Of a DNA stretch of 64,000 nucleotides, positions 4,770 through 37,577 are shown piece after piece. The stretch covers positions 286,990 through 350,989 of the forward strand of contig CAZQKK010000002.1 in the NCBI GenBank assembly GCA_964593885.1, given 5' to 3'. Source of the DNA: an uncultured Candidatus Saccharibacteria bacterium (GTDB taxonomy: Bacteria; Patescibacteriota; UBA1384; CAILIB01). The first letter of the stretch is position 1. The number at the start of each line of letters is the position of its first letter. A program made the position numbers and the translations under genes. Below the pieces are notes generated by a model that had not been told where the DNA came from, ran no database searches, and was given only the letters and a program-made list of their open reading frames with translations.

Positions 4770-4796
4770 ACATGTAGTCTACCAGGAGAGACGTAC

Positions 4797-4825: not shown

Positions 4826-4886
4826 GCTGCGTTACCGAAAGAAGCGACCCTACGGGAGAGCTACTTGCGGAGGAACTGAACAACTC

Positions 4887-5735: not shown

Positions 5736-5758
5736 CCGCGCACCGGCCCCGTCCGTCA

Positions 5759-5790
5759 AGCCGCTACCCCACCATAGGTAGCGGCTTTTC
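5759..5790 (+). terminator. Rho-independent terminator (first of two in tandem)
   Basis: AGCCGCUACC-loop-GGUAGCGGCU followed by UUUUC. Confidence 0.6.
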
Positions 5791-5803
5791 ACTATCCCAA
5801 GCA

Positions 5804-5831
5804 AGTCGCCCCACCCGCGGGCGACTTTTTC
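5804..5831 (+). terminator. Rho-independent terminator (second of tandem)
   Basis: GUCGCCC-CACCCGC-GGGCGAC followed by UUUUUC; a TATACT -10-like element follows immediately, just before truD. Confidence 0.6.
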
Positions 5832-5853
5832 ATTTCCCCGCTATACTAACAAC

Positions 5854-7260: not shown

Positions 7261-7324
7261 CCAAGTCTTTCGGGGATTATAGCTACTAGTTTTTTTACTC
7301 AAATATTGCTAGCGTCGTTGTGAG

Positions 7325-17192: not shown

Positions 17193-17888
17193 TTAGCGGT
17201 GGACTCTCCGCTTCTTCGTGACACCAATGAGCGCACCGTAGTTGGGAACCAGCGGAGCGATGTGGTGTGGATGCGCAATAGGCGTCCCGTACAGACAGTA
17301 CGTCACCACTCGTTCTCGCTCAGTCTGACCGAGGAGCAGGAACTGCCGATGCATGAAGGCATCATCCCGAATCCTGAGCTCCGCCCGGGTTCGCTTCAGG
17401 TGGTCGTGCATCTCATGGACGTCGGTCCCACGCGTCAGTACGGCATCCGGTAGCCGAGTGAGGATAGCGTCCTGGAAGAACCAGGCGTGCCGAGGGTTGA
17501 GGAAGATCCTTTCACCCTCTTGCTTCCCAACCATCAGGAGTTCTGGAATTTCCTCAGATTCCTGGAAGTTGGTAGCAGCGAGAGCCATGAAGCACCCCCG
17601 TTTCTGCCCGGCGCCGTAGCCACCTTTGGCAAGTCCCAAGAGCGGGAACTCTCTGCATGCGCCAACCTTCAGGAAGTGCCTGAGGCCGCCAAGGTGGTGC
17701 CCATTACCACCCAGAACCAGGCCGTAGTCGTGGCAACTGCGCAGCGATGCGCTCCTCACCAGCGTGTCGTTTGCCGGAACCAGTCCGACAGAAGTGTTTC
17801 GAAGTTGGAGAGCGGGGCTCTCCGTTCCAATCCAAGTAAGAATACTGATTGTTTTCCTCGTGAGCACATCGGTGGTCCGATAGCTCAC
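17193..17888 (-). CDS. hypothetical ORF with GTG start; possibly the decayed C-terminal part of the upstream photolyase-related gene
   Basis: 231-codon ORF with no ATG start. Lies directly downstream of the truncated DPRP ORF. An in-frame TAA sits just upstream of the GTG. Coding status uncertain. Confidence 0.3.
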   Translation of the reverse strand: MSYRTTDVLTRKTISILTWIGTESPALQLRNTSVGLVPANDTLVRSASLRSCHDYGLVLGGNGHHLGGLRHFLKVGACREFPLLGLAKGGYGAGQKRGCFMALAATNFQESEEIPELLMVGKQEGERIFLNPRHAWFFQDAILTRLPDAVLTRGTDVHEMHDHLKRTRAELRIRDDAFMHRQFLLLGQTERERVVTYCLYGTPIAHPHHIAPLVPNYGALIGVTKKRRVHR

Positions 17889-17937: not shown

Positions 17938-18882
17938 CTACGCCTGGAAACGCTGCCACTCACGTTTGAGTATGGGTCTGAGGAAAGCTTCTATCGCTGC
18001 TGGTGAAGCCAGTTTCTGCTGGAGTAATCGTGTTGTGACAGTACTGGGGAGTAGTAAACCAAGCATGACGCTGGGGAGTACGTACTTTTCGCAGACACTC
18101 TCGGGCGCCGCTTGCCAGTCACCTTCAAGGACGTACTCAAGCTGGTCTTCGGCATCGGCAAAGGTTACCGGAGATGGCACGCCTGCCACTCCCCCCTTAA
18201 CCCGTGGGAAGTGCTCTGCAACGTAAGTTGCCGCTTCTTCAACGTACCGATTCCTCTCAGGAAGGGTAATTGCTAGGGTGTACTTTCGCTTTGGAACTTG
18301 GGGAAGTTTCCAGCTCCCTCCAACGGGGTCACCCTTACCATCAACCAGAATACTGAGCTTTTGGCGTAGGAAAGCGGTGAACCTTGAGCCAACCTTTTCT
18401 TCGCCCTTTAACTCGTTACGCAAACTTTCTGTGAGCAAGAAACCCTGACTTGCCACCACCTCAAGTGAAATCCGGTTGAGCTTGCATACCTTTACTAACT
18501 CTCGCTCTTCTTTCATGGTTGGGAGTGGGTAGGTTTGAAGTGCTGTAACGCCAGAAGCAGCAAGGTGTTTCACCACAGATTGCAGACTTGGGTGTACCGA
18601 AGCTTCTAGGTAGTCAACCTGGTACCCCTTTACCAAAAGCCTCTCGCGTAATGCTTGGAGTGAGGCTCGGTAGGTAACTAGCTCAGCCTTTGTGGCCTTC
18701 TGGTTCCTGAAGTACTTGGGTAGCTCAACCACTACCACCTTCTGCTCACGAGGAAGGTTGAGGATTGATCGATGGAGCTGGGTGGGAAGCACCAGGAAGT
18801 GTGGGTGTGAGGTCATCTTCCCACTACTACACCAGGACAAACCTGAAACGTCAACCTGGTAACCTGGTAAAAGTGACCTCAT
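17938..18882 (-). CDS. deoxyribodipyrimidine photolyase-related protein (DPRP family), truncated at the GWREF motif
   Basis: RNQKATKAELVTYRASLQALRERLLVKGYQVDY, FLRQKLSILVDGKGDPVGGSWKLP and SVMLGLLLPSTV...IEAFLRPILKREWQRF follow the DPRP and early FAD-binding-domain consensus. The ORF stops right in the (I/L)GWREF box. Confidence 0.55.
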   Translation of the reverse strand: MRSLLPGYQVDVSGLSWCSSGKMTSHPHFLVLPTQLHRSILNLPREQKVVVVELPKYFRNQKATKAELVTYRASLQALRERLLVKGYQVDYLEASVHPSLQSVVKHLAASGVTALQTYPLPTMKEERELVKVCKLNRISLEVVASQGFLLTESLRNELKGEEKVGSRFTAFLRQKLSILVDGKGDPVGGSWKLPQVPKRKYTLAITLPERNRYVEEAATYVAEHFPRVKGGVAGVPSPVTFADAEDQLEYVLEGDWQAAPESVCEKYVLPSVMLGLLLPSTVTTRLLQQKLASPAAIEAFLRPILKREWQRFQA

Positions 18883-18896
18883 TCACCCCGTGAGTA

Positions 18897-18924
18897 CTTG
18901 AAAAAAACGCAAAACATGCTACTA
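18897..18924 (+). promoter_or_regulatory. sigma70-like promoter TTGAAA-16-TACTAT
   Basis: Precedes the RBS AAGGAG and ATG 18979. Confidence 0.45.
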
Positions 18925-18978
18925 TTTCGTAGCTTTCTCACCTGCCCTCGCAAGACGTCACTGAGAAGGAGAACCCCT

Positions 18979-19635
18979 ATGGAAAACCTGGCTCCTATCG
19001 CCTGTGGACAGGCGCTCGCACTCCTCTATAAGGAAGAGTTAAACCTCCACCGCTTTGCGGTGGCGCTCGGTACCATGTACGGATATGAATCTGACCAGTG
19101 GCCAGAAGCAATTTCGAACATTTCGCGTTTCTCGGTTTCAAAAGGTTCACACTCCTTCGACGAACTTGTAGAAGCGGCAGGAGTATACGATACTACGCTC
19201 CCCCACCGAGGATCGTTGCAACTCGTACGATCGTACCGACACATCCATGCCCCTCCTGACGGCGAAGAAGGAGAGAAGCCCTACAACTTTGTTATGGGAC
19301 AACTCACCTTTCCCGTAGACAGACTCCAGGGAGAACACTTCGGTGTTGTTCCAGGAAACTACATGGCTGAAAGCCTGGCTCAGCTCCTTGCAGTTGCAGC
19401 AATCACCAATGGTCAACTCAAGGAGGGCTACGTACCGCTCCTTGCAGAAAGCCTCGGGAGAACAAAGAAGCCACTCCCCACTTCTTCGGAAGATCCTATC
19501 TGGGGAATCATCGCCTATGCTCCCGACAAGGATGTGAAGCGCTTCGCAGCTGTCGGCCTCATAGGTCAGGATACTAACCTGATCTACGCCGGTGCTGTCC
19601 TGGGTGTCTCCTACCCCCGCTGCAGACTGAAGTAG
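18979..19635 (+). CDS. hotdog-fold (FabA/FabZ-like dehydratase-type) protein
   Basis: GEHFGVVPGNYMAESLAQLLAVAAI resembles the FabZ HFPG-PVMPGVL-EA-AQ core; ATG 18979 with AAGGAG RBS. Confidence 0.5.
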   Translation: MENLAPIACGQALALLYKEELNLHRFAVALGTMYGYESDQWPEAISNISRFSVSKGSHSFDELVEAAGVYDTTLPHRGSLQLVRSYRHIHAPPDGEEGEKPYNFVMGQLTFPVDRLQGEHFGVVPGNYMAESLAQLLAVAAITNGQLKEGYVPLLAESLGRTKKPLPTSSEDPIWGIIAYAPDKDVKRFAAVGLIGQDTNLIYAGAVLGVSYPRCRLK

Positions 19636-19644
19636 TAAGATCTC

Positions 19645-19670
19645 AACCCACCACCACGGTGGGTTTTTTC
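19645..19670 (+). terminator. Rho-independent terminator after the hotdog gene
   Basis: CCCACC-ACCAC-GGUGGG followed by UUUUUUC. Confidence 0.6.
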
Positions 19671-19711
19671 GTGGGTTCGTCCCACAAGCGGCTTTAGGCT
19701 ACAATCGTGGT

Positions 19712-20608
19712 ATGCCTTCACACACCACAGCATCTCAACGAGTCTCACTGCAGTTCCTCCTCAAGACCTCGCGTCCACGCTTCTGGATGTACGTCATGGG
19801 ACCAGTGGTTCTTGGCTTCCTTGCCGCAACACCATCTCTCGCCCTCCTACCGTTTGCCGCCTACCTCCTGATCTACTTTTCCTTTCCTGCAAACCTTCTC
19901 ATCTACGGGGTGAACGACATCTTTGACTTCGCCACAGACCAGCACAACGCAAAGAAGGGTACCTACGAGGTGCTCCTCCAACCAAGTCAGCGCAAGAAAG
20001 TCTGGCTAACCATCATTGCGCTCAACCTCATCTTCCTCGTGCCACTGATGTACCTTGAATTGAGCCACGGTGGCTTCTTGGTGAGCCTCTCCCTTCTCGG
20101 CTTCCTCTTCTTCGGTATCTTCTACTCGGCTCCTCCTATCAGGGCAAAGGAAATTCCTTTCCTAGACAGCTTTTTCAACATCCTCTACGTTTTTCCAGGC
20201 ATTGCCGCCTACCTGGTGGGGGGTGGGAACAAGATTAACATTCCTATCCTCGTGGCTGCCACTGCCTGGTGCATGGCCATGCACGCCTTCTCAGCCGTAC
20301 CTGATATTGCGGCAGACAAGAAGGCGAAGCTCAGAACGGTGGCCACGTACCTCGGTGAGCGAAAAACCATCATCTTCTGCGCTTGTCTCTACGGCCTCGC
20401 CACCTTACTGACATACCCAAGCCTGGGCAATCAGGTTGCGCTCCTGGGTGCAGGATACGTAGGCATCATGGTGAGTTCGCTCCAAAAGACACCAAAAAAG
20501 GCGTCTCAACCAGACGCCATCTTTGCTACCTACAAGAGCTTTCCCCTGCTCAATACTCTGGCGGGAACCGTCCTCACCCTCCTCCTGCTACGCCAGTGGC
20601 TCAGCTAG
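19712..20608 (+). CDS. UbiA-family prenyltransferase (NDIFDFATDQ motif); candidate lycopene elongase-type enzyme given its neighbourhood
   Basis: 8-9 TM helices, NDxxDxxxD motif; convergent and 21-nt overlapping with crtI. Confidence 0.7.
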   Translation: MPSHTTASQRVSLQFLLKTSRPRFWMYVMGPVVLGFLAATPSLALLPFAAYLLIYFSFPANLLIYGVNDIFDFATDQHNAKKGTYEVLLQPSQRKKVWLTIIALNLIFLVPLMYLELSHGGFLVSLSLLGFLFFGIFYSAPPIRAKEIPFLDSFFNILYVFPGIAAYLVGGGNKINIPILVAATAWCMAMHAFSAVPDIAADKKAKLRTVATYLGERKTIIFCACLYGLATLLTYPSLGNQVALLGAGYVGIMVSSLQKTPKKASQPDAIFATYKSFPLLNTLAGTVLTLLLLRQWLS

Positions 20609-22126
20609 TGGACCAGCACTCTTATCGTTACGCAAACGCTTGAGCAGGAGCTCAGCGCTAATCAGGCACATTGGCATACCAATGCCGGGGTTAGTATCGG
20701 CACCCACGTAGAAGAGGTTTTCAATCTTCTTATTGGTGTTATTTGGCCTAAATATTGCTGTCTGATTGAGGGTGTGTGCAAGTCCCAGAGCGGTACCTTG
20801 AAAACTGTTGTAGTCGGCTTTGAACTGATCAACGCTGTACACCCGTTTCTGGATCACCCGTTTCCTGAGATCTGGAATTTCCATGGTGTATTCCATGTTG
20901 TGGAGAATGGTATCCCCGTACACTTCCATCCAAACCTTGCTCTCCTCAACTCCAGCTGGAATTGGGACGAGGACAAAGAGATTCTCGTACCCTTTTGGTG
21001 CGACAGTCTCATCGGTGACACTTGGCGCACAGACGTAGTAGGAGGGATCGGTTGGGAGGTACTTGTGTTCGCCAAAAATCTGCTTGAAGTTCTCCTCCCA
21101 GTCTTCAGAAAAGACCAGGTTGTGATGGGTGAGTTGTGGTATTCTCCCCTTAATCCCGAGGTACATGATGTAGGCAGATGGGGCGAGGGTGGCTTTATCC
21201 CAGGTTTCATCTGAGATGGTTCGGTACTCCTTTGGAATAAGGGAGGTTTCGGTGTGGTGCCTATCTGTGTTAGAGACAACAATATCTGCCTCAACAACCT
21301 TGCCGCCTTCAAGGACTACCCCAACTGCCTTCCCGTTCTCTACGATAATTTGCTCAGTAGGTGCTGAATTCACCACCGTAACACCATGCTTTTCCATGAG
21401 GTTTTTGAGCACCTCAACAATCCGGTAAATGCCACCTTCTGGGTAGAACACTCCAAGGTTAAAGTCTATGTGCGCCATGATGCTGTAGAGCGCGGGGGTG
21501 TTGTAGGGAGAGCTCCCCAGGAACACCAAGTTGTACTCCATGATCTTCTGCATCTCAGGGGTGTGAAAGTAGCGGGTGACGTAGCCGTGCATCTTGCTAA
21601 ATACCCTCAGCTTGCTGCCTTTGAGAAGTGCTTCTAGGGTGAAGAAGTCTTTCACCGTGTCATAGTTCTTGTAAACAAAGCTTTGCATTGAAATCTTGTA
21701 CTGCTCTTCTGATTTCTTGAGGTACTCTCTAAACCTCGGGGTGACACCTGGCTCAATTTCCTCAAAAATCTTGAGGTCACGCTCAACGTCCCCCGTCACA
21801 TCAACGGTGAGACCGGTGTCCTTAAAGAAGATACGGTACGAAGGATCAAGTGGTTTGAGAGTAATGTGCTCGGCAATATCTTCGCCCATGAGCTTAAAGT
21901 AGTGCTCAAAGACATCTGGCATGAGGTACCAAGAAGGTCCCATGTCAAACACGAAGCCATCCTTTTTGAAGAGTCCGGCCTTTCCGCCAAGGTTAGCATT
22001 CTTCTCGTAGAGTGAAACCTTGTAGCCAGCCTTCCCCAAGAGTGCTGCAGTAGCCATGCCGCCAATACCACCCCCGATAACCACAACGTGAGTACCCTTG
22101 GCTTTCTGTGGTGTTTTCTTTGCCAT
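20588..22126 (-). CDS. crtI: phytoene desaturase (CrtI family, FAD-dependent)
   Basis: VVVIGGGIGGMATAALL dinucleotide-binding fold, 512 aa, directly downstream of the phytoene synthase gene. Confidence 0.85.
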   Translation of the reverse strand: MAKKTPQKAKGTHVVVIGGGIGGMATAALLGKAGYKVSLYEKNANLGGKAGLFKKDGFVFDMGPSWYLMPDVFEHYFKLMGEDIAEHITLKPLDPSYRIFFKDTGLTVDVTGDVERDLKIFEEIEPGVTPRFREYLKKSEEQYKISMQSFVYKNYDTVKDFFTLEALLKGSKLRVFSKMHGYVTRYFHTPEMQKIMEYNLVFLGSSPYNTPALYSIMAHIDFNLGVFYPEGGIYRIVEVLKNLMEKHGVTVVNSAPTEQIIVENGKAVGVVLEGGKVVEADIVVSNTDRHHTETSLIPKEYRTISDETWDKATLAPSAYIMYLGIKGRIPQLTHHNLVFSEDWEENFKQIFGEHKYLPTDPSYYVCAPSVTDETVAPKGYENLFVLVPIPAGVEESKVWMEVYGDTILHNMEYTMEIPDLRKRVIQKRVYSVDQFKADYNSFQGTALGLAHTLNQTAIFRPNNTNKKIENLFYVGADTNPGIGMPMCLISAELLLKRLRNDKSAGPLAEPLA

Positions 22127-22129
22127 GTA

Positions 22130-22990
22130 CTACCTCCAGTAGTGTTTGAGAATAAGCTTCAGTTTTCGCCACCTGCCAACCCGCGCCCTCCCTACAAATG
22201 GATTGTAGCCTTGCGCAGCGATACTATCCAGAATGCCTGCATAGAGTTTTGCCGCCAGCCTCACTGCCCGCCTACCCTCTGGCTTTAAGAGGTGGATTCC
22301 TTTCTCTGCTTCAGCAAAGAGGTTACGTGATCGCTCAACCTGGAATCTCATCAGTCTCAGGAGGTTCTCACTGGCGTTCCTCTCTGCGATATCGCTATCA
22401 CTGACACCATACCTCCTCATCTCATCTTGGGGAAGGTAGATTCTCCCACGCTCTCGGTAGTCTTCATCAACATCACGGAGGAAGTTGGTGAGCTGCATGG
22501 CGTTTCCAAGGTACGTAGCACTCTTTAGGACTTCATCCTCTTTTGCCCCATCTACCACTCCGATAATTTGTGCCATCATGAGGCCTACCACCACTGCGGA
22601 ACCGTACATGTAGCCTTCAAGATCACTGTAGCTCTCGTACCGTGACTTCTCCGTATCTTGGAGCATTGCCTTGAGAAAGTCTTCGCCATACGTACGGTCA
22701 ACCCCGTAAGCTTTGAACAGCTCGGTGGAAAGTTGGATGAGTGGGTCTCCTGAAGGTTTACCATCCATCTCACCATTCCAGGCGGCTATCCAACGCTCTA
22801 GCTCTCCCCTTGCTTCGGTAGGGTTCTCAGGCTCATCCACAATTTGATCAGGAATCCTTACAAACGCGTAGAGCGCGTAGGTGGCTTTCCTCAGTTTCTT
22901 TGGGAAAAACTGGGTAGCCAGGTAGTAGCTGGTACCGTGTTTCTTCTGAATTGCTTGCGCCTGCTGCTGGGCAGTCTGGATGTGTGCCAT
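22130..22990 (-). CDS. crtB: phytoene synthase (CrtB)
   Basis: YLATQFFPKKLRKATYALYAFVRIPDQIVDE and downstream DxxxD-type motifs of squalene/phytoene synthases. Confidence 0.85.
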   Translation of the reverse strand: MAHIQTAQQQAQAIQKKHGTSYYLATQFFPKKLRKATYALYAFVRIPDQIVDEPENPTEARGELERWIAAWNGEMDGKPSGDPLIQLSTELFKAYGVDRTYGEDFLKAMLQDTEKSRYESYSDLEGYMYGSAVVVGLMMAQIIGVVDGAKEDEVLKSATYLGNAMQLTNFLRDVDEDYRERGRIYLPQDEMRRYGVSDSDIAERNASENLLRLMRFQVERSRNLFAEAEKGIHLLKPEGRRAVRLAAKLYAGILDSIAAQGYNPFVGRARVGRWRKLKLILKHYWR

Positions 22991-24058
22991 CTACTTTTTC
23001 CTCGTTTCAATGAGAGTGAGGAGGGATTCCCAAGGCTTTCGCTGATCAGCTTCCAAACTCGCGAGGGCATTCCTCGCCACAGCAAAGGAGCTTGAGATTT
23101 CCCGTTCGGCCCGCGAGATGGCACCTGAGTCTCTGTAGAGAGTCTTCGCCTGCTTCAGCTCTGTTTCGGTGAGCTTGGTACCCATGAATTTCTTGAGGAG
23201 CGCCTGTTGCTCTGGGGTACCATCACTCAGAATGTAGCTGGTAAGGATGGTATGAGCGCCTTCTTGGATATCGTTGAGAACCGGCTTTTGGAGCTGCTCT
23301 TCCGTAAGGATTACATCAAAGAGGTCATCCTGGATTTGAAAACCAGTTCCAATAGCCCTCCCATAGGTGTCGGCAAACTCCATCCACTGCTTACTCCCGC
23401 CAGCAGCTACCGCACCAATCTGCATAGGCCTCACGAAGGTGTAGAGGGTTGATTTGAAGAGCGTTTTCTCGGTGAGCTCAGCTTCGGTAACCTCGGTGCG
23501 CGTGGTCATATCAACATCAATCATCTGCCCAACCACCACCTCAAGGAACATCCGTGAGAAGACAGCATTCACTGCCATCTTTTCGGCGGGTGAGATAGCC
23601 ACTTCTTGCAGTCTTGCCTGGGAGAGCGCGAGGAGGAAGTCCCCCCAGAGAATAGCCTGCGAATCCGCCACGCGTGGTAGGTTGCCAATCCTCCCCCGGG
23701 ATCGAAGCCAGCTCTCGGTGTAGTGGTGCATGGTGGTCACACCGCGCCTAGAGGCTGCTTCGTCCATAATGTCATCATGGATGAGGGCAAAGAGGTGGAA
23801 GAGCTCGAGGGCAACCGCCAGTTTCACCGCAACGTCTCTGTTGGTACCTCCAGCACTCAGGTACATCTGGTAGGCACCGTACCCCCTGATTCGCTTCCCA
23901 CCCGCGAGAATCAGCTTCTCAAGGTACTCAACGCTCTCGTCTACGTACGAAACCTTGGTTTCTTTCTGGACTGAAACAATAAGCTCTCGCACGGTGGTGG
24001 CGAGAGCTGCGTCAATTTCGTCTCGGATGGTAGAGAATGACGGTTCGGCAGCGGACAT
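22991..24058 (-). CDS. crtE: polyprenyl (geranylgeranyl) diphosphate synthase
   Basis: FARM LIHDDIMDE and SARM GFQIQDDLFD motifs. ATG at 24058 chosen, because the track start at 24136 is a GTG without support. Contiguous with crtB. Confidence 0.8.
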   Translation of the reverse strand: MSAAEPSFSTIRDEIDAALATTVRELIVSVQKETKVSYVDESVEYLEKLILAGGKRIRGYGAYQMYLSAGGTNRDVAVKLAVALELFHLFALIHDDIMDEAASRRGVTTMHHYTESWLRSRGRIGNLPRVADSQAILWGDFLLALSQARLQEVAISPAEKMAVNAVFSRMFLEVVVGQMIDVDMTTRTEVTEAELTEKTLFKSTLYTFVRPMQIGAVAAGGSKQWMEFADTYGRAIGTGFQIQDDLFDVILTEEQLQKPVLNDIQEGAHTILTSYILSDGTPEQQALLKKFMGTKLTETELKQAKTLYRDSGAISRAEREISSSFAVARNALASLEADQRKPWESLLTLIETRKK

Positions 24059-24059
24059 A

Positions 24060-24860
24060 CTATACCTGTATGCTAGCAAGATTAGCTGGTACTGGGAAGC
24101 CTTCTCGGGTGAGTGAGGTGAGTGCCTGGTGTACACGCTCAGGAGTATCCCCCGTTGCTACAACCAGTTCTTGCACATCCCAGTCCGCCTTTTCCAAGAA
24201 GAGCCTCAGGAGCTTTCCCCGCAGCTGCCTCAACGAACCCTCAAACTTTGATTGCTTCGTGTAGTGCTTACTTCGCCTATTTGCATTGGGCACCTGCTTT
24301 GCCAGCCACGAGCCGTAGTCCATGAGTGCGTAGTAGTACTCACGCGGATTATCCCGGTCTAGGTTTCGCTCAATAATTGGCATAAGCTCGGCATCAGAAA
24401 CCCCCTCTCCCTCGGGAAAGTAGTGGTGGAGGAAAACCCTCCTAATGTTGGTTTCAATCATCACAACCGGCTGGTTGTAGGCAAAAGCAACCACCGCTCC
24501 CGCCGTGTAGGGACCCACACCGGGAAGCTCCATGAGACCTTCTTGCGTAGTGGGGAAATTCCCCCGTTCAACGGTAGTGCGCGCTGCTTTCTGGAGCGAA
24601 AGGGCGCGGCGATTGTACCCTAACCCCTGCCAGAGTTTGAGGACCTCCTCGGGAGCTGCCGCTGCTAGCGCGCTTGCCGTTGGAAATGCCTCGAGGAAAG
24701 CGAGGTATTTGGGTACCACCCGCTCAGCTTGGGTCTGCTGGAGCATCACTTCTGAAACGAGCACCTTGTAAGGATCGTCAAGGTTTCGCCATGGGAGGAG
24801 GTCTCTCCCCTGTTCATGGTAGAACTTCATTACCAGCGCCCTAAAATCGGTATCTTCCAT
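24060..24860 (-). CDS. HhH-GPD superfamily DNA glycosylase (EndoIII/MutY-like) without FeS-cluster cysteines
   Basis: LPGVGPYTAGAVVAFAYNQPVVMIETNIRRV helix-hairpin-helix/GPD motif. No C-x6-C-x2-C-x5-C cluster loop. ATG 24860 with GGAAAGG RBS, 1 nt after the upstream gene's stop. Confidence 0.7.
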   Translation of the reverse strand: MEDTDFRALVMKFYHEQGRDLLPWRNLDDPYKVLVSEVMLQQTQAERVVPKYLAFLEAFPTASALAAAAPEEVLKLWQGLGYNRRALSLQKAARTTVERGNFPTTQEGLMELPGVGPYTAGAVVAFAYNQPVVMIETNIRRVFLHHYFPEGEGVSDAELMPIIERNLDRDNPREYYYALMDYGSWLAKQVPNANRRSKHYTKQSKFEGSLRQLRGKLLRLFLEKADWDVQELVVATGDTPERVHQALTSLTREGFPVPANLASIQV

Positions 24861-24861
24861 C

Positions 24862-25299
24862 CTACCTTTCCTGGAGCATGAGGAGAAAAGCAGCGAAACT
24901 AGACCACCAACCAAGGAACGAAAGTATGAAAGAAAAGGTGATGCCCAGCTGCCAGTTAGACGGGAGGAGCTCTGATGACTTCCCTTGCTTTTCACGCTGC
25001 AGGAGGAACCTACTCACCCCAAAGGTAAGGTAGAGGCCATTGAGGATGAGGAGGAGTGCTACGGCAACTTGCCAGCCGATCCCATAGGAAATAACACTCC
25101 CACTGAGTAGTGCTATACTTCCAACCCAGATAAGAGGTTTTGTTACCTTGTGGGTGCGAGTAGTAGCTTCAGTCCAGTAGGAAGACCGCCTCCCCAGGAA
25201 CCCGTGGAGATCAATGACCGTCACTGCGCCCAGCCCTAACGTGAAGGCAAGGAGGAGAAGGACATCGCCAGTGAGTTGCGCGGTTGGAATGAGAGCCAT
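24862..25299 (-). CDS. small 4-TM membrane protein, first gene of the carotenoid/glycosylase operon
   Basis: Four hydrophobic helices; translationally coupled to the glycosylase gene. Confidence 0.45.
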   Translation of the reverse strand: MALIPTAQLTGDVLLLLAFTLGLGAVTVIDLHGFLGRRSSYWTEATTRTHKVTKPLIWVGSIALLSGSVISYGIGWQVAVALLLILNGLYLTFGVSRFLLQREKQGKSSELLPSNWQLGITFSFILSFLGWWSSFAAFLLMLQER

Positions 25300-25437
25300 A
25301 TCAGCCTCAGCATAGCAGGCGGCTACTTGCCGATAAAGCTCATTTCTGCTATTACAGTGGCAGGTTCTTTTGCGTTCGCGCGAAAGGATACTTCAACTTG
25401 ACCCAGGGATGGGCAAGCAGGATATGGAACCTATGAC

Positions 25438-25920
25438 ATGAGTGGTATGGCAACAGTTGCTTCGGTACGCAGGAATGTGTACCTCGGCCAAAACATTGCG
25501 AGTGCCCGGGTGGAAGACCTGGCAACTCAACGACAAGGAAAGAGCAGCAGTCAGAGAGGGTTTGAGAGGTACCTCGAGAACCTTGACCGCAGCATTGCGA
25601 GGTTGAACCGCGAAGCGTACGCGAAACTGGGTTACCGGCAACGGACGCTAAGTCTCGCACTCCTTCGCCAAGAAAGGTGGCAAAAAAAACTTGCCGAAAA
25701 CGACATCAAACTGAAAGAGGTTGGACGCAGCATTGCTGCTACAGAAAACCGACGTCAGCTGGAAGTGTTGAGAGCAAGAAGGTCACGAATCAAAGAGACC
25801 ATCCACCGCAACCGCGAAGAGCTTGCACGAGCAACTCAAGCGGTAAGAAAGGCGGAAAATGCCGTCAGACAATCAGAAGAAGCTGGCAAAGCACTTGGGC
25901 AAGTGCCGCAGCGAGAGTAG
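25438..25920 (+). CDS. hypothetical coiled-coil protein (R/E/K/Q-rich, 160 aa)
   Basis: ORF with a strong terminator downstream; no motif. Confidence 0.4.
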   Translation: MSGMATVASVRRNVYLGQNIASARVEDLATQRQGKSSSQRGFERYLENLDRSIARLNREAYAKLGYRQRTLSLALLRQERWQKKLAENDIKLKEVGRSIAATENRRQLEVLRARRSRIKETIHRNREELARATQAVRKAENAVRQSEEAGKALGQVPQRE

Positions 25921-26400: not shown

Positions 26401-27023
26401 CGTTTCCCGTTACAGCTAGATGGGTTCCAAAATCCTTTTGATTCTTCTTTAGCACCAAGCTCAGCTGCCTTGAAGGCTTTCTGGAACTTGTAGGGTTTCT
26501 GGTAGGTGTACTCAGTTCCGTAACCTTCTTGAATGAGCTGTAGGTTGAAGAAGGTGCCATCTGGTAGGTAGACATAGCGAAGGATCCTGTTGTACTTATC
26601 AACATCCCCCTGGGTTGGATCTCCCTCAAGTACCACCTCTTTGCCTGAAAGCTTCTCCTTGGTGAACTGTGAGGCCTCTTTGCCAAAGCACTGCACCGTT
26701 TTGCGAGGATCAACTGTTTCAGGAGTATCTACCCCAAGCAGTCTGACGGTTTGTTCGCTCCCATCTTGCAACCTCACCTTGAAGGTATCCCCGTCAGCCA
26801 CGCTCACCACTGTGGGGCGAAGCGAAATGTTTGCGTTGGTAGCATTTTGGGTGGCAGCTGGTGTTGGTTGTACAGTTGCCTCAGCAGTAGGTACACCTAA
26901 CAGTTTTCCCAACTCACTACCAGTAGCGGCGGTTTTTGGCGAAAGCTGAAAGAGAAATACCAGCGCTAGGAGCGCCACTGTAACACCAATGTTTGAGAGT
27001 TGCTTTCTTGAGGCTTTCCGCAT
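26397..27023 (-). CDS. secreted/membrane-anchored thermonuclease (SNase-like)
   Basis: N-terminal signal/anchor (VTVALLALVFLF). SNase motif VADGDTFKVRL....VRLLGVDTPET. ATG at 27023, because the track start at 27059 is TTG. Confidence 0.75.
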   Translation of the reverse strand: MRKASRKQLSNIGVTVALLALVFLFQLSPKTAATGSELGKLLGVPTAEATVQPTPAATQNATNANISLRPTVVSVADGDTFKVRLQDGSEQTVRLLGVDTPETVDPRKTVQCFGKEASQFTKEKLSGKEVVLEGDPTQGDVDKYNRILRYVYLPDGTFFNLQLIQEGYGTEYTYQKPYKFQKAFKAAELGAKEESKGFWNPSSCNGKR

Positions 27024-27059
27024 AGCTGCAGTATACGCTCGCAACGAGGTTGGGTGCAA

Positions 27060-27443
27060 AATTTGAAGCCCACCCCGAATGAGGGGTGGGCAGATTCAGC
27101 ATCCTCCGGACATCAACACAGGCCAGGTAACCCTGTGCAACCACGTACGAGTGACGCTTCTCACCATATGAGCCTGCCCTGACAGCGCTGCTGGGAAGAG
27201 CACCTGGGAGCCTCAACCAACACGTGCGAACAGGCGACATGTACCGGACAGGTGCAAATGAGCACCCCCGATTGCGTCTCCCTTGCCTCGGCGCACCGTT
27301 TGGTACCCGGATTGGCTAGGAGAGTGACTCTCACATCCGGAAGGTATCCGGCGGAGGTCGCTGAGCGTCAGTTCCAATGGTGAACCGAACGGTAACCTAC
27401 GAGGTGTGAGTTACCTGGTAACTCTAGCAGATTGAGGAAACCC
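27060..27443. ncRNA. candidate structured ncRNA locus (possibly RNase P RNA-like); orientation unresolved
   Basis: 384 nt with no credible ORF, GC-rich, many stable hairpins. On +: a 9-bp hairpin GCCCACCCC-GAAUGA-GGGGUGGGC, then UCCGG, then CCAGGUAACCCUG and GUGCAAC, in the same order as P3 / P4-5' strand / P8 / GUGCAAC of bacterial RNase P RNA. On -: a TTGTAA-17-TAGAGT promoter-like element just after the ddl stop, and the same 9-bp hairpin followed by UUCAAAUUUU as a terminator. Confidence 0.3.
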
Positions 27444-28376
27444 TTACAAAGATACAGCGTACTGATGTGATATGTATTTCTTCGCTACCTCAACTAACCG
27501 CGAAACGAAGTCATTGTAAGGTATACCCGCTGCTTGCAACTCTTTGGGGAGGAGCGACGTCTTGGTCATACCAGGTAGCGTATTAATCTCAAGAAAGTAT
27601 GGCTTTCCGTCTTCGCTCAAGATCCAATCAACACGGGCGTAGTGCCTGCAGCCCAAGACTTTGAATGCTTGGAGCGACAGTTCCTGTAGTTCTTTTGTAA
27701 CTTTTTCAGGTAAATTTGCGGGGCACATTTCTTCACACTTACTTGAGGTGTACTTCGCATCAAAGTTGAAAAACTCTTCGGTGGGACGAATTTCTACGAG
27801 TGGAAGAACCTCTGGACTTCCCTCCAAATGGATCACGCCACACGTCAGCTCCCTTCCCTTAACAAAGGTCTCGAGGAGAATTTCACTGCCGTACTTGAAT
27901 GCTTCCTCCACTGCTTGTGTGAGCGCTTCAGGGCTTTTCACAATGGTTACTCCGAAACTGGAGCCATCGCCATTTGGCTTCACTACCACAGGGTAGGTTT
28001 CATCCCAGGTTACTGCATGTCCTTTTGAGAACCGCTTAGAGGTTGGGGTGAGAATAGGCGTTTGTGCCGAAACCACCTCTTTAGTTTTGGTCTTATCGAT
28101 GGTGAGTTTGGAGACCACTGAGCTAGAACCGGTGTAGGGTATTCCGGCCTCTTCAAGTAACCTCTGCACCTGACCATCTTCACCAAAGGGACCGTGGAGA
28201 GCAATGATAACCAGCTTTGATTGCGCCTCAACTACCTGGTTCAGCCAATCGGAGTCTGCCGCATCAACTTCCTGGAATGGGAGCTTAAGTGACGCGATGG
28301 CATCGGCGATTGTTGCCGCCGTCCAGAGTGATACCTCACGTTCTGCCGATGTTCCGCCTTTGAGAATGGTAATCAT
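27444..28376 (-). CDS. ddl: D-alanine--D-alanine ligase
   Basis: Full-length Ddl homology (ATP-grasp): GPFGEDG, EVNTLPGMT-type C-terminal motifs. Confidence 0.9.
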   Translation of the reverse strand: MITILKGGTSAEREVSLWTAATIADAIASLKLPFQEVDAADSDWLNQVVEAQSKLVIIALHGPFGEDGQVQRLLEEAGIPYTGSSSVVSKLTIDKTKTKEVVSAQTPILTPTSKRFSKGHAVTWDETYPVVVKPNGDGSSFGVTIVKSPEALTQAVEEAFKYGSEILLETFVKGRELTCGVIHLEGSPEVLPLVEIRPTEEFFNFDAKYTSSKCEEMCPANLPEKVTKELQELSLQAFKVLGCRHYARVDWILSEDGKPYFLEINTLPGMTKTSLLPKELQAAGIPYNDFVSRLVEVAKKYISHQYAVSL

Positions 28377-28473
28377 AGAAATTGTAGGCTACACCAGACA
28401 TGTCAGACGTGCAATATTCCATGCAAAAATAACAATGTGAACCTCTTTTAGACACCCACTACAGATTGACAAT

Positions 28474-28758
28474 ATGCAAGTAAGTTGGTATAAGGATTCC
28501 GTGTATAAGGCGTTAAAGAGTACCATTGAAACACTCAATACTAACCTCCAGGTTAGTTTAGCTGCCAGACAAATCGCTATCGACCCAAAAACAACAGATG
28601 AGACCAAAAAGAGGAAGCTTAAGAGCTACCTCGAACTTGGACCTGAGGTGACTATCACCATCATCAACCGTGGTGGTAAGCGCGGATTCAGGATTGAGGG
28701 AAAAGAGAAGATCGCATCTGTCGAAATGTCACAATCTTACGAAACTACCGTTTCCTAA
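28474..28758 (+). CDS. hypothetical small basic protein (94 aa) in a lower-GC block
   Basis: ORF with a strong terminator; local composition more AT-rich than its surroundings. Confidence 0.35.
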   Translation: MQVSWYKDSVYKALKSTIETLNTNLQVSLAARQIAIDPKTTDETKKRKLKSYLELGPEVTITIINRGGKRGFRIEGKEKIASVEMSQSYETTVS

Positions 28759-28766
28759 GAAGTCTA

Positions 28767-28793
28767 AGCCACCTTACAGAAGGTGGTTTTTTG
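28767..28793 (+). terminator. Rho-independent terminator
   Basis: CCACCUU-ACAG-AAGGUGG followed by UUUUUUG. Confidence 0.65.
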
Positions 28794-28896
28794 TGTATTT
28801 CAAGAAAGAGGATACAGCAAGCTGCCGTTTCCTGGTCAAAAGCGCTTCGCTTTCCGCGCCAGGAGCACGAACGAATCCTCCGTGAACAACACAATA

Positions 28897-28927
28897 CAAA
28901 AGAGAGTAGCTAGCTACTCTCTTTTGT
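28897..28927. terminator. bidirectional terminator (perfect 22-nt palindrome) 3' of tRNA-Pro
   Basis: AAAAGAGAGUAGCUAGCUACUCUCUUUU perfect palindrome with U-runs on both strands. Confidence 0.6.
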
Positions 28928-28929
28928 AT

Positions 28930-29006
28930 TGGTCGGGGAAAGAGGATTCGAACCTCCGATCTCTGGACCCCCAGCCCAGCGCACTAGTCCACTATGCTAT
29001 TCCCCG
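28930..29006 (-). tRNA. tRNA-Pro (anticodon GGG), CCA encoded
   Basis: Reverse complement folds as a cloverleaf: 7-bp acceptor CGGGGAA/UUCCCCG, U8, D-arm GCAU/GUGC with a GG loop, anticodon stem CUGGG/UCCAG with loop CU-GGG-GG, 5-nt variable loop, T-arm GGAGG-UUCGAAU-CCUCU, discriminator A, CCA. Confidence 0.85.
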
Positions 29007-29140
29007 AGGAGAAATGCGTCGCGGAAATGCTTGCATTTCCATGACCATTTCGACGAGGGGAAATCAGCAAAGCTGATTGTCCCCGAGACTCAGTGTTGTC
29101 AGGGTAACCCGCCGCAGGCGGGTGTCCCCGAGGCTCCGTC
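29007..29140 (-). repeat. tRNA-5'-end-like direct repeats (CTCGGGGA x3 including the tRNA itself) interleaved with three strong hairpins
   Basis: Reading the - strand upstream of the tRNA: CCUCGGGGACACCCGCCUGCGGCGGGU..., CUCGGGGACAAUCAGCUUUGCUGAUUUCCCCUCG..., then CUCGGGGAAUAGC (the tRNA 5' end). Hairpins: ACCCGCC-GCA-GGCGGGU, AAUCAGC-AAA-GCUGAUU, GGAAAUGC/GCAUUUCC. Confidence 0.4.
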
Positions 29141-29329
29141 TGTAATTTAAAGGGCCCACGAGCGTCGTATGCGGCCTGGAGATATCCAGGTGGGCTGCCT
29201 CACTGCCACTCCACGGAGTTGCAAAATATCGGCGTCCCAATGCATGAAAAGATGACCACATACACGCCCGTAGGCACTTCACACCGTAACCCATTTACCC
29301 TGGAATAGCAACAGAGTATACTTGGGTAT

Positions 29330-31675
29330 ATGAGTGCCACGCTCGCTGCCGAGCTCTGCCGAATTGTCCCGCCGGAAAAACTTCCAGACCGCCTTTTGGC
29401 ATCGGGAGTTATTCGTCCTTCTCGCACTGCTTCCCTGGCTGAACAGCCGGTACTTGCGTACGTTTTTGAGGTTGGAAAACCTTGGCTACCATCGTCCCAA
29501 CTCCTCCCCTCCCTCGTTACCACCCTTGAAGAGGGGTACACCAACCTTGAGGGAAAGGGAAATCTGGATGACCAGTTTGAGAACCTCCTCCGTGACGTAA
29601 ACCAGAAGCTCAACGAGATTTCCGAGTCTGGCGAGACTGACTGGATTGGAAGTCTCAACGGCCTAATCCTCCTCATCGGAAAGCACGAGCTCCACTTCGC
29701 CCAAACTGGTAGGTGTCCCGCATTTCTTCTCCAGAACAACCGTATTCGCCAAATCACCGATGACGCTAGCGCATCTGAAGGTGACGTTCACCCCCTTAAA
29801 ACATTCTCAAACCTTGCGTCAGGCAGGCTTGGCGAGAACGATCAAATCCTCATCGCCAACCAAGAGCTGTATGGAGAAATCTCTCTCGATGCCCTCCGCC
29901 GGATTCTCAATACCAGCTCGCCCTACCAGAGCTCTGTTCTCATCAGTAAAGAGCTCAAGAAAGAAAAGAATTCAAAAATCTGTAGCTTAATTATCGCCCT
30001 TAAGCACACCAACGAGCTTGGAAACGAACCTGAGGTTGTCAGCCTTGAAGAAGCTCTACAGAGCAACATAAAGAAGGTGCAAGGAAAACTTGGTCCATTG
30101 CTTGAAAAAGCCAAAATCGGTGCAAAAAAATTAAGTGAGGTAAGTGCAAAAGCCGCGGTAAAGGTTGGCGAGAGCGCCAAGAAAGCAGCAGAGCAAGCAA
30201 GCAGTAAAGCTAAGGAAACCTTCAAAACAGCAGAGCCTGTAGATGGTCTCCACCAGACGTCACCCGAAACTCCTGCAGTGGAGGAAACTACAGAACCTTC
30301 AGTAATAGAGGAGATTAAACCGACAGGCTTTGAGGAAGAAGAGACAATCACCGAGTCAGAGATTGGTACCATCATCCCAGCAAGCGAGTTTGATCTCGAG
30401 AAACCAAAACGTCACCACGAGAAAAAATCACGGCACGGTGTTGAGCTGGTAAAGTACCTCATCCTCAAGAAAATCCCCTACCTTGCCATTACGGGTCTTC
30501 ACCACTTCATTCTCTGGCTTCAGGTGCCTAAAAACAAAAAGATTGCTGCCCTCGGTCTTGCATGCCTGCTGATAGTCATTGTTGCCTGGGGAGCAGTTGC
30601 CCAGAGAAACCCTTCAACTGAACAAGGTGGGAGCACGAGCAACGCAAGTCTCATCGCCGACGTCACCTCTCTTAAAGGTAAAATTGCTACAGCAATTGAG
30701 CTCCAGCAGGAGGTAGAAGCAAGTCGCTTGGTAGAACAGGCTATAGAGAAGCTCATGGCAGTTGCTGATCCAAGTAACTCGCAGCGCGACGAGGTGAATA
30801 AGCTATGGGACAGCATCACGGCATCTGGTGACACATTGAGTAAAACTACCCGTCTCACTACCGCAGCTGCCACCTATGACTTTGACAGCGAGGTTACCAA
30901 CTTCATTACCAACCTTCCCTACTTCTACGGGATCAAAAAAGATACGTCAGATGTGAAACGCACCGGAATTGGTAACCTCAAAGAAATCCAAACAAGCATC
31001 GCTATCCCATTTAAAGATGATGCCGTAGTCTCTCTTGCAAAGAGCGTTGAGTCAGATACGGCTGGGTATGTTCTTACCAAGCAGAGTCAGGTCTTACGTA
31101 TTGCTCAAATAGGCAGTAGCACCGACGTCAGACCAATTTCGCCTTCCTCAGGTGAATTCGCCGCAGGAGATGTTATCGCAAGCTACTCTGGAAATGTATA
31201 CATCTTAGATACCAAATCTGGTCTCGTTTGGAGGTACGGCAACAGCGGCACCGTCTACAGTGAAGGGAAGAGTCTCTTCGACCCCAACAAAGTCAACCTG
31301 AAAAAGAGTGTTTCACTAGCAATTGATGGGAGTTTCTACATTCTGAAACAGGATGGCAGCATCACAAAACTGACAGGCGGTAAGCAGGACACTACATTTA
31401 CCTTGAAAGGTCAGCCGACTCTCAGCCAAAAGCTTACCCAGCCACTCCAGGTGGTAACCAATGAAGGACTGAGCAGCATTTTTGTCCTTGATGCGGGTAG
31501 CACCAGTAGTGACAGGTCAACAGGAAGAATTCTTGAATTTACAAAGAATGGTGATTTTGTGAAGCAGTACGCTTTCCCAAACAACTTCACCAATGTGAGG
31601 GCGTTTGATATCAATACAAAAGACAACAAAATCTGGATCCTCAACGGATCAACTGTTTCAGAATTCTCAATCTAG
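29330..31675 (+). CDS. single-pass membrane protein with an N-terminal catalytically degenerate PP2C-like domain and a C-terminal beta-propeller-like repeat domain
   Basis: N-domain follows the PP2C fold pattern (VFEVGKPW ... GSLNGLILLIGKHELHFAQTGRCPAFLLQNNRIRQITDD ... ILIANQELYGEIS) but with the metal-binding Asp positions substituted. Acidic/Lys-rich linker, TM helix IAALGLACLLIVIVAWGAV. C-domain has repeated YILD/FYIL/IFVLD/IWILNG strands. Confidence 0.55.
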   Translation: MSATLAAELCRIVPPEKLPDRLLASGVIRPSRTASLAEQPVLAYVFEVGKPWLPSSQLLPSLVTTLEEGYTNLEGKGNLDDQFENLLRDVNQKLNEISESGETDWIGSLNGLILLIGKHELHFAQTGRCPAFLLQNNRIRQITDDASASEGDVHPLKTFSNLASGRLGENDQILIANQELYGEISLDALRRILNTSSPYQSSVLISKELKKEKNSKICSLIIALKHTNELGNEPEVVSLEEALQSNIKKVQGKLGPLLEKAKIGAKKLSEVSAKAAVKVGESAKKAAEQASSKAKETFKTAEPVDGLHQTSPETPAVEETTEPSVIEEIKPTGFEEEETITESEIGTIIPASEFDLEKPKRHHEKKSRHGVELVKYLILKKIPYLAITGLHHFILWLQVPKNKKIAALGLACLLIVIVAWGAVAQRNPSTEQGGSTSNASLIADVTSLKGKIATAIELQQEVEASRLVEQAIEKLMAVADPSNSQRDEVNKLWDSITASGDTLSKTTRLTTAAATYDFDSEVTNFITNLPYFYGIKKDTSDVKRTGIGNLKEIQTSIAIPFKDDAVVSLAKSVESDTAGYVLTKQSQVLRIAQIGSSTDVRPISPSSGEFAAGDVIASYSGNVYILDTKSGLVWRYGNSGTVYSEGKSLFDPNKVNLKKSVSLAIDGSFYILKQDGSITKLTGGKQDTTFTLKGQPTLSQKLTQPLQVVTNEGLSSIFVLDAGSTSSDRSTGRILEFTKNGDFVKQYAFPNNFTNVRAFDINTKDNKIWILNGSTVSEFSI

Positions 31676-31681
31676 GAAGGT

Positions 31682-33352: not shown

Positions 33353-33361
33353 TTGAAGAGC

Positions 33362-34546: not shown

Positions 34547-34612
34547 ATCTGTTACTCTACCTAGTTTCTTGCTATACTTCAAACATCTTTCCGTAACGCA
34601 AAGCGTTCGGCC

Positions 34613-37576: not shown

Positions 37577-37577
37577 A

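Follow-up and report, generated by a model that had tools for sequence, protein, structure and literature searches.

Carotenoid genes in the chromosome of a member of the Saccharibacteria raise two questions: which pigment they make, and why they should stand in one array with a DNA glycosylase. The locus considered here lies in a 64,000-nucleotide (nt) stretch of DNA from an uncultured Candidatus Saccharibacteria bacterium (GenBank assembly GCA_964593885.1, contig CAZQKK010000002.1, positions 286,990 to 350,989 of the forward strand), called the window below. It comprises seven genes, namely those for a hotdog-fold protein and a UbiA-family prenyltransferase on the plus strand, and crtI, crtB, crtE, a HhH-GPD glycosylase gene and a gene for a membrane protein on the minus strand, next to a DPRP-type relative of the photolyases. 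A preliminary description made from the sequence had taken the whole for a light or oxidative-stress module that might be horizontally mobile. We read it, with a probability of about 0.62, as a chromosomal locus, inherited vertically, that serves the synthesis of a bacterioruberin-type acyclic carotenoid (C45/C50) and carries a MutYX-type adenine glycosylase in its operon and, tentatively, a FabZ-like tailoring enzyme. The MutYX family is already known, and so are bacterioruberin genes in Patescibacteria, which were reported in 2023 from Lake Baikal (PMC9948471). New are the inclusion of MutYX in the operon, an orphan FabZ-like gene in the position of CruF (the C50 carotenoid 2'',3''-hydratase) and the context of the membrane protein family.

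The prenyltransferase is the gene from which the pigment can be named. By Pfam it belongs to PF01040 UbiA (68 bits). On the NCBIfam model NF009516 it scores 242.6 bits against a cutoff of 205, whereas the rival models for MenA, UbiA and ChlG reach 36, 23.6 and 25 bits, respectively, and the haem O synthase model gives no match at E <=0.01. The meaning of NF009516 was checked with a Halarchaeum plasmid enzyme from an annotated crtB-crtI-prenyltransferase-cruF cluster, which scores 397.5 bits. Since the cutoff is passed and the enzyme of the haloarchaeal cluster matches the same model, the protein can be assigned as a LyeJ-type lycopene elongase/1,2-hydratase, in agreement with the class first proposed for it. 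Its Asp-rich motifs NDxxDxxxD and DxxxD are in place, with N68, D69, D72, D76, D198 and D202 invariant across 16 homologues.

Related loci were collected by a scan with the UbiA alignment over one genome per GTDB species, and the comparisons below refer to the 80 LyeJ loci (42-50% identity) among the matches listed. They come from Acidobacteria, Saccharibacteria, Uhrbacteria, Peribacteria, Abditibacteria, Actinomycetota and Kapaibacterium, the best of the listed matches (50% identity) being from Saccharibacteria. In most of the 80, lyeJ on the plus strand is convergent with crtI-crtB on the minus strand, sometimes with crtE next, and in most of them the UbiA homologues (43-50% identity) adjoin CruF as well as crtI-crtB. 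Several sources name these homologues 4-hydroxybenzoate polyprenyltransferase. The core LyeJ/crtI-crtB cluster is thus common and old. The window shares its convergent layout with the bacterial bacterioruberin clusters, and with the haloarchaeal crtI/crtD-lyeJ-cruF cluster (c0507-c0506-c0505 of Haloarcula japonica) it shares a LyeJ recognised by the same NCBIfam model beside a CrtI/CrtD-type desaturase and CrtB. It differs from both in having an orphan FabZ-like gene where CruF would stand, a single desaturase, and crtE, MutYX and the membrane protein gene in the same operon. Identity between the haloarchaeal LyeJ and that of the window is only 38%.

As to the remaining carotenoid enzymes, CrtI scores 503.9 bits on TIGR02734 (crtI_fam; cutoff 238), and its best equivalog model is NF058655, CrtID. 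A second desaturase was not found among the scanned open reading frames (ORFs) of the 64 kb. Bifunctional CrtI/CrtD activity has been demonstrated for C0507 and D1086 of Haloarcula japonica (PMC11946383), and the CrtI of the window is probably bifunctional in the same way, judging from its family scores, a point which the preliminary description had missed. CrtB is a putative phytoene synthase by family membership (Pfam SQS_PSY, 248 bits) and context, every NCBIfam equivalog score being under its cutoff. CrtE (Pfam polyprenyl_synt, 171.7 bits; motifs DDIMD and DDLFD) is presumably a short-chain trans-prenyl diphosphate synthase making geranylgeranyl diphosphate (GGPP), with the C20 length suggested by the context.

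The roles of LyeJ, CrtD and CruF in the haloarchaeal pathway are set out in PMC11946383, citing Yang 2015. Transferred from the characterised haloarchaeal enzymes, the chemistry would begin with GGPP made by CrtE and condensed to phytoene by CrtB. A single CrtI-family enzyme would convert phytoene to lycopene and probably introduce the 3,4-desaturations too, and LyeJ would add a C5 unit to C-2 and hydrate the 1,2 bond at each end of the molecule. CrtE, CrtB, CrtI and LyeJ alone would thus yield bisanhydrobacterioruberin. The hotdog protein, with its His/Glu dyad intact, might tentatively be regarded as the tailoring (de)hydratase of this lineage for the elongated end group.

The case for such a tailoring enzyme begins with CruF (PF04240), which was searched for by tblastn (E up to 1) and with a 69-sequence profile. 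Neither search finds it in the 64-kb window, and the profile finds none in the nine contigs that make up the lineage of the window (L001-L009; 63-86% UbiA identity). With the same profile, 74 of the 91 compared loci among the matches listed have CruF near LyeJ, mostly directly upstream of it. In the window this position is taken by the hotdog gene; both the absence of CruF and the gene standing in its place had escaped the preliminary description. Five other Saccharibacteria loci (L010, L012, L024, L048 and L058) have a GT2 glycosyltransferase in the slot upstream of LyeJ. Because its content varies by lineage, CruF in one case and GT2 in the other, the slot can be seen as a host of lineage-specific tailoring enzymes. 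The GT2 genes suggest that these Saccharibacteria have C50 carotenoids which are glycosylated rather than hydrated by CruF, beside DNA-repair genes. In two acidobacterial loci (L025, 6694-8004; L035, 6636-7940) CruF is fused to a NUDIX domain, giving proteins of 434-436 amino acids (aa) whose NUDIX part is possibly a module resembling isopentenyl diphosphate isomerase.

The hotdog protein itself consists of a helical N-terminus of about 70 residues followed by the hotdog domain. It matches no Pfam hotdog family at E up to 10 and no NCBIfam model at E up to 0.01. When a profile of six family members was compared with PDB, the top four matches were FabZ chains (E 0.016-0.57), aligned on LPHR, HF, PG and EALAQ; hhalign of the profile against a single E. 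coli FabZ sequence aligned the same motifs with a probability of 2%. An AF2 model from a three-sequence alignment had a mean predicted local distance difference test score (pLDDT) of 35, which rose to 69 (predicted template modelling score, pTM, 0.68) when two distant members were added to make five sequences. In a Foldseek search of PDB with the latter model the top 21 matches were all FabZ (E 2.6e-5 to 8e-4; template modelling score, normalised to the target, 0.55-0.61). Invariant in the six members are LPHRGSL, EHF, VPG and E-A-L-A-Q, including H120, P125, E131 and Q135, which stand in register with the FabZ chains. Because the FabZ motifs are recovered in the PDB profile search and the FabZ fold by Foldseek, the protein is predicted to be a remote FabZ-like enzyme with catalytic His and Glu, a distant relative and no FabZ orthologue; it had thus been rightly introduced as hotdog-fold and FabZ-like. 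It resembles FabZ, the (3R)-hydroxyacyl-acyl carrier protein dehydratase, in the modelled fold and in these motifs, catalytic residues included. It differs from FabZ in its extra N-terminus, in being missed by the Pfam hotdog families and in its setting, since no fatty-acid synthesis genes are found in the window. The family is also very small: among 1.84 billion cluster representatives, all scanned with HMMER, there are only three real relatives. Every member is located between the DPRP and LyeJ genes, and the family profile has no match in the other 80 LyeJ loci.

Several observations weigh against a bacterioruberin-type pathway completed by this protein. The score of CrtI on the CrtID model (599.8 bits) stays under the cutoff of 640, while the CrtI of the haloarchaeal cluster reaches 754 bits. 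In ten further Patescibacteria loci no CruF adjoins LyeJ either, and in one Saccharibacteria bin cruF is found far from lyeJ, elsewhere in the genome (PMC9948471), so that CruF may likewise be encoded elsewhere in the source genome. With a pLDDT of 69, the hotdog protein has been modelled no better than moderately well, and it looks soluble. Its gene outpaces the crt genes in evolutionary rate by a factor of 2.5-4. FabZ works on double bonds activated by a thioester and not on the isolated alkenes of a carotenoid.

These points feed the strongest competing explanation, by which the FabZ-like gene is unrelated to carotenoids, being a partner of DPRP, a remnant or a repurposed lipid enzyme, and the pathway either ends at bisanhydrobacterioruberin or is continued by a distant CruF. 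Its odds fall only a little short of even. Apart from the thioester requirement and the remote cruF just mentioned, it draws on the gene having a promoter and a conserved terminator of its own, on its rapid divergence (29-37% identity to relatives in which CrtI is 70-76% identical) and on its position divergent from DPRP in every locus, because of which linkage cannot tell DPRP from LyeJ as its partner. Against this stands that the hotdog gene is confined to genomes having no CruF in the slot next to LyeJ and invariably takes that very slot, which in other lineages carries tailoring genes. The invariance of the catalytic His, the Glu and LPHRGSL further argues for an active enzyme.

The second question, that of the glycosylase in the carotenoid operon, starts from the layout of the genes (Table 1). 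Starts and stops on the minus strand were fixed by direct reading of the sequence, and the lengths were checked against the gene calls of relatives. Longer ORFs beginning with GTG (311 aa and 381 aa) were rejected as over-extensions because the shorter starts agree with the gene lengths in relatives. All seven genes lie where they had been placed, and the convergent 3' ends of the UbiA gene and crtI do overlap by 21 nt. In comparison with the 87% relative L001, the crt, glycosylase and membrane protein genes have dN/dS values of 0.055-0.09 and the hotdog gene one of 0.22; these are low throughout, and therefore all are real genes under purifying selection.

Table 1. Genes and putative signals of the carotenoid locus, in window positions
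Feature	Position	Strand	Remarks
DPRP-type cryptochrome/photolyase gene, truncated	17938..18816	-	about 292 aa with the probable start; divergent from the hotdog gene
Promoter-like site of the hotdog gene	18898..18925	+	TTGAAA, 16 nt, TACTAT, with TG; consensus scan
Hotdog gene	18979..19635	+	218 aa; promoter-like site and terminator of its own
Intrinsic terminator of the hotdog gene	19645..19671	+	CCCACC..GGTGGG, then T-run; scan
TACAAT -10 box of the UbiA gene	19700..19705	+	6 nt before the ATG; sequence reading
UbiA gene (putative LyeJ)	19712..20608	+	298 aa; convergent with crtI
Candidate terminator of the crt operon	20500..20518	-	hairpin and TTTTTT inside the 3' end of the UbiA coding sequence; scan
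crtI	22126-20588	-	512 aa; last in the five-gene array
crtB	22990-22130	-	286 aa; 3 nt before crtI
crtE	24058-22991	-	355 aa; ATG 24058, stop 22991; 0 nt before crtB
Glycosylase gene	24860-24060	-	266 aa; ATG 24860, stop 24060; 1 nt before crtE
Membrane protein gene	25299-24862	-	145 aa; ATG 25299, stop 24862; 1 nt before the glycosylase gene; first in the operon
Promoter-like element of the five-gene operon	25309..25337	-	TTTATC, 17 nt, TATGCT; ends 9 nt before the membrane-gene ATG

Together with DPRP, the genes would form four transcription units, namely DPRP, hotdog, UbiA and the crt operon, the last with one promoter driving the membrane protein, MutYX, CrtE, CrtB and CrtI. The five-gene operon architecture seen at the outset is borne out by the spacers of 0 to 3 nt and by a single conserved promoter-like element before the first gene. 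This element is kept in L005 and in L004, and in the latter, where the membrane gene is missing, it directly precedes the glycosylase ATG; its fusion to the glycosylase gene is the best evidence at hand for a single promoter serving the whole block. The separate signals of the hotdog gene were correctly recognised as well, the promoter-like element recurring in L001, L004 and L007, and the terminator hairpin being kept in each of the five relatives compared and, with its T-run, in the window, L001, L004, L005 and L007. This gene has a leader of about 45 nt with a GAAGGAG Shine-Dalgarno sequence. At the start of the UbiA gene the sequence GCTACAATC(G/A)(T/A)GGT-ATG is kept in L001, L004 and L007. 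The -10-like boxes so close to the start codons of the UbiA gene and the operon suggest leaderless or very short-leader mRNAs. For a terminator of the crt operon the evidence is weak, the candidate being kept in L001 alone and not in L004, L005 or L007.

A shared operator was looked for by eye across the DPRP, hotdog, UbiA and crt promoter regions of relatives and was not seen there, only ordinary -10/-35-like elements being common. Between the crt operon and the ORF 25438-25920, which diverge from each other, a sequence able to form a hairpin, CTGCCACTGTAATAGCAG, stands at 25345-25364. L001, L004 and L005 have retained it, and it may be either an operator or a structured 5' element of the divergent gene. 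In accordance with the preliminary description, neither a cyclase nor a LitR/CarH- or MerR-type regulator is found by Pfam in a scan of 46 window ORFs, almost every one of which has 150 aa or more, smaller ORFs not having been scanned.

The glycosylase belongs to the HhH-GPD and HHH families of Pfam. It contains no cysteine in its 266 residues and so has none of the ligands of a 4Fe-4S cluster (Cys-X6-Cys-X2-Cys-X5-Cys), as had been stated. Its closest solved relative is MutYX of Eggerthella sp. (PDB 8UUC; E = 6.4e-70, query residues 20-233), a clusterless adenine glycosylase specific for 8-oxoguanine:adenine (OG:A) pairs (Trasvina-Arenas et al., NAR 2025, PMC12631127). MutYX is characterised by catalytic Glu33, Glu134 replacing the catalytic Asp, and Gln201 and Arg209 for OG recognition (PMC12631127). 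These correspond to E37 (SEVMLQQTQ), E136 (IETN), Q203 and R211 of the window protein, all invariant in 16 homologues; the offset of the Gln and Arg comes from the 8UUC alignment, in which Q203 and R211 align with TRQS and GSRRQ. The two proteins may also share a short C-terminal domain in place of a NUDIX-like one: the 8UUC alignment stops at residue 233 of 266, and some homologues have weak HTH_24 or TrmB matches. They differ at the Tyr-Ala swap of the Eggerthella enzyme (Ala116, Tyr132), the window protein keeping the Tyr of helix H8 (GPYT) and having Met where Eggerthella recruited Tyr132, so that it combines the actinobacterial Glu with a Tyr position of the Entamoeba/Chlorobi type. The missing swap is no bar to membership because it is exclusive to the actinobacterial clade (PMC12631127). 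On these alignments the protein is identified as a MutYX-type clusterless adenine DNA glycosylase.

The 2025 structure paper cites about 46 clusterless MutY homologues, from anaerobes (PMC12631127), and the host of the window gene is no obvious anaerobe of the clades described there. At E <=1e-5 the family has at least 7,999 homologues, with source names including Verrucomicrobiae and Deltaproteobacteria, and MutYX is thereby widened from about 46 sequences to a family with thousands of environmental members. The embedding of a cluster-less glycosylase in a carotenoid operon, which had been called unusual, is so in respect of position, which is confined to a narrow lineage, and not in respect of the protein, which belongs to a characterised and large family. 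In the orthologous loci of relatives, where its presence had been proposed as a check, MutYX takes the same place in the operon in L001, L002, L004 and L005 only; the relatives carry it wherever their contigs reach that far. A gene for Fpg/MutM stands next to RecO (61048-61908, minus strand). As both Fpg/MutM and MutYX are encoded, both arms of the GO system, removal of 8-oxoguanine and correction of OG:A, are present; of the two, only MutYX is placed in the crt operon.

If the operon is transcribed as one unit, MutYX would remove adenine opposite 8-oxoguanine while the antioxidant pigment is being made, and pigment and repair of oxidised DNA would rise together. The identities of the genes, their close spacing, the retention of the arrangement in five related genomes, the lack of CruF in the 64 kb and the fold and motifs of the hotdog protein are shown here; co-transcription, the structure of the pigment, the substrate of the hotdog protein and any induction by light or oxidants are what we infer from the locus. 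The arguments on the other side are that 1-nt spacing is no proof of co-transcription or co-regulation, and that the linkage of MutYX could be neutral packing because it is found in a narrow lineage only and because 11 of the 17 other Patescibacteria LyeJ loci have none of the repair families searched. The window also has no LitR/CarH/MerR regulator or anti-sigma pair among its scanned ORFs.

Neutral packing is accordingly the next explanation to be weighed: in a small genome dense with genes, a rearrangement would have brought MutYX and the membrane protein gene to their place upstream of crtE, where they share its transcript but have no functional tie to pigment synthesis. We consider it unlikely, though to be taken seriously. 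None of the other 80 LyeJ loci has MutYX, in spite of the abundance of its homologues; L004 has undergone a clean loss of the membrane gene, with nothing else changed; in other lineages the place upstream of crtE is taken by a TrmB-like methyltransferase, Band 7, GDYXXLXY or GreA; and the whole window is tightly packed core chromosome. On the other hand, the arrangement has outlasted a divergence that brought synonymous sites close to saturation or all the way to it (dS from about 1 to above 2). In addition, three lineages of Patescibacteria independently place two repair or photolyase-type genes each no more than a few genes away from LyeJ, and the enzymes are not homologous, which hints at selection for linkage. 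In four Saccharibacteria loci (L010, L012, L048 and L058, about 4500-7950) the genes directly upstream of LyeJ encode GT2, a family-4 uracil-DNA glycosylase (UDG), a DedA/VTT protein and a cyclobutane pyrimidine dimer (CPD) photolyase; the fifth locus with GT2, L024, has GT2 only. In two Peribacteria (L073, 3313-4077 and 8505-9221; L047, 5287-6057) exonuclease III (Xth) is next to LyeJ; both also have an AlkD-like glycosylase gene, which in L073 immediately precedes crtE and in L047 lies near the cluster. About 30 acidobacterial UDG matches were discounted as independent support, as the UDG travels with CoaBC in loci that are interrelated, and they are therefore counted as a single lineage-level event. 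In L025 and L035 the pair of CoaBC and a long-form UDG is next to or near crtB.

The membrane protein adds a further point against neutral packing. It has four predicted helices and a conserved loop, matches nothing in Pfam or NCBIfam, and carries a motif, GLGAVTVIDxHGFLG..YW..ATTRTHKVTKPxIW, that is invariant across phyla. Among its 422 metagenome relatives 80 loci were sampled, and in none of them are crt genes found within 6 kb, on which ground a role as the missing carotenoid enzyme (a cyclase or a substitute for CruF) was rejected. Recurrent neighbours are SOUL with NmrA/DUF2867 (21 loci), TspO (10), photolyase (5) and DPRP (3), and furthermore DUF2177, DUF1295 and flavin reductase. By association the protein belongs with light and oxidant stress genes and not with carotenoid enzymes. 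One genome of Kapaibacterium has TspO, the membrane protein and crtE-crtB-crtI in that order. In an unrelated contig (L153, 1828-10096) the membrane family is found together with KatG, a Fur-family regulator (possibly PerR), rubrerythrin and a TudS-DUF1722 (RudS-type) desulfidase, and the same contig also has NmrA-DUF2867 and a MutYX-like glycosylase (52% identity). The cluster looks like an oxidative or UV stress island, and it is the co-occurrence there of the membrane family and a MutYX-like gene that speaks against chance packing in the window.

The combination recalls the light-inducible regulons governed by LitR/CarH or sigma-E, such as PplR/PmlR of Pseudomonas (PMC9758184), in which carotenoid or stress genes go together with photolyase and CryB-type proteins. 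Common to both is that the genes of a pigment or stress pathway have photolyase-family genes, DNA-damage genes and uncharacterised small membrane proteins in their company; the gene sets of the PplR/PmlR type resemble the usual neighbours of the membrane family (photolyase, DPRP, NmrA-type reductases and TspO). The window differs from them in the absence of such regulators noted above and in that its repair enzyme is a base-excision glycosylase and not a photolyase. The idea of a light or oxidative-stress theme put forward in the preliminary description stands to that extent, being backed by the neighbours of the membrane family (photolyase, DPRP, TspO, SOUL/NmrA, KatG and RudS) and by the repair genes near other LyeJ genes, while the mobility attached to it does not.

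That the locus is a recently acquired, horizontally mobile photoprotection island is indeed very improbable. LyeJ clusters are scattered over haloarchaea, Actinomycetota, Acidobacteria, Patescibacteria and others, and the only crt-linked relative of the membrane gene is in a distant phylum; the scatter therefore points to old transfers. Against a recent arrival, the proposed comparison of composition with flanking core genes gave a match and no contrast: GC content at third codon positions (GC3) is 0.53-0.68 in the region and 0.58-0.66 in the ATP synthase genes, and the tetranucleotide correlation of the region with the rest of the window, 0.93-0.94, is the highest in the window. The flanks are common to all relatives with long enough contigs (ATP synthase, lactate permease, ABC/FtsX and DPRP on one side, SNase and Ddl on the other), the synteny from ATP synthase to Ddl holds down to 63% UbiA identity, and the arrangement is conserved in five related genomes. 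The scanned ORFs of the window include no integrase or transposase, and no tRNA adjoins the locus, the sole one being 3.6 kb off, beyond Ddl. Finally, a quinone or haem prenyltransferase (MenA, UbiA or CyoE/CtaB) merely standing beside crt genes, although suggested by the generic Pfam membership and the 4-hydroxybenzoate labels of homologues, can practically be dismissed given the NCBIfam scores, the haloarchaeal enzyme on the same model and the CruF and crtI-crtB neighbours described above.

The photolyase-related neighbour divergent from the hotdog gene had been named correctly as to family, yet only its N-terminal part, about 60%, is encoded. The protein matches Pfam PF04244 (66 bits) and aligns to residues 12-314 of cryptochrome/photolyase chains of 509 aa, ending there. 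The ORF 17938-18882 is probably too long, the likely start being M23 at 18816, as in relatives, whose calls are 292-294 aa. Because the same N-terminal portion of about 292 aa is all that is present in every relative, a working photolyase is unlikely. A promoter-like TTGACG-N17-TGTAGT is kept in four relatives, and a conserved inverted repeat, CCAGG..CCTGG, occurs in the DPRP promoter region of relatives. Downstream of DPRP there is a 231-aa ORF (17193-17888, minus strand) with no Pfam or PDB match and several overlapping plus-strand ORFs; its dS relative to L001 is unusually low, 0.37, that of its neighbours being about 0.9-1.5. It was rejected as the missing C-terminal half of DPRP for want of similarity to cryptochrome/photolyase chains or Pfam. 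At its position L005 has a full CPD photolyase beside DPRP.

The window as a whole is core chromosome, with the dcw cluster, aminoacyl-tRNA synthetases, RecJ, RadA, RecO and Fpg. Its compositional outlier is 27001-39000, where GC is 0.45-0.49 (0.52-0.55 elsewhere) and the tetranucleotide correlation falls to 0.72; this part carries core genes for arginyl- and tyrosyl-tRNA synthetases and a class A penicillin-binding protein, plus a 781-aa ORF with no Pfam match. ORFs with no Pfam match at E <=1e-4 are 53799-58112 (1437 aa), 29330-31675 (781 aa) and 4455-5735 (426 aa), all on the plus strand.

Bacterioruberin-type pigments stiffen membranes and quench reactive oxygen, and their presence in tiny, host-dependent bacteria has only recently been reported. 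The pathway proposed here is minimal, in that a C50 carotenoid may need no more than CrtE, CrtB, LyeJ and a single desaturase, and it comes with a possible new last-step enzyme. To our knowledge the hotdog fold has never been linked to carotenoids. Taken jointly, the two more far-reaching propositions, that a FabZ-derived hotdog enzyme replaces CruF on a C50 carotenoid and that small-genome bacteria have repeatedly wired pigment synthesis and repair into a co-regulated unit, are rather doubtful. If true, they would mean a hotdog enzyme that has a carotenoid for its substrate instead of an acyl thioester and supplants an unrelated membrane hydratase, and a photo-oxidative defence unit that goes as far as having MutYX translated from the crt mRNA. 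Current knowledge is not overturned by the locus, the value of which lies in specific testable hypotheses. The joining of pigment synthesis to the repair of 8-oxoguanine damage bears on how stress defence is organised in genome-reduced bacteria without dedicated regulators.

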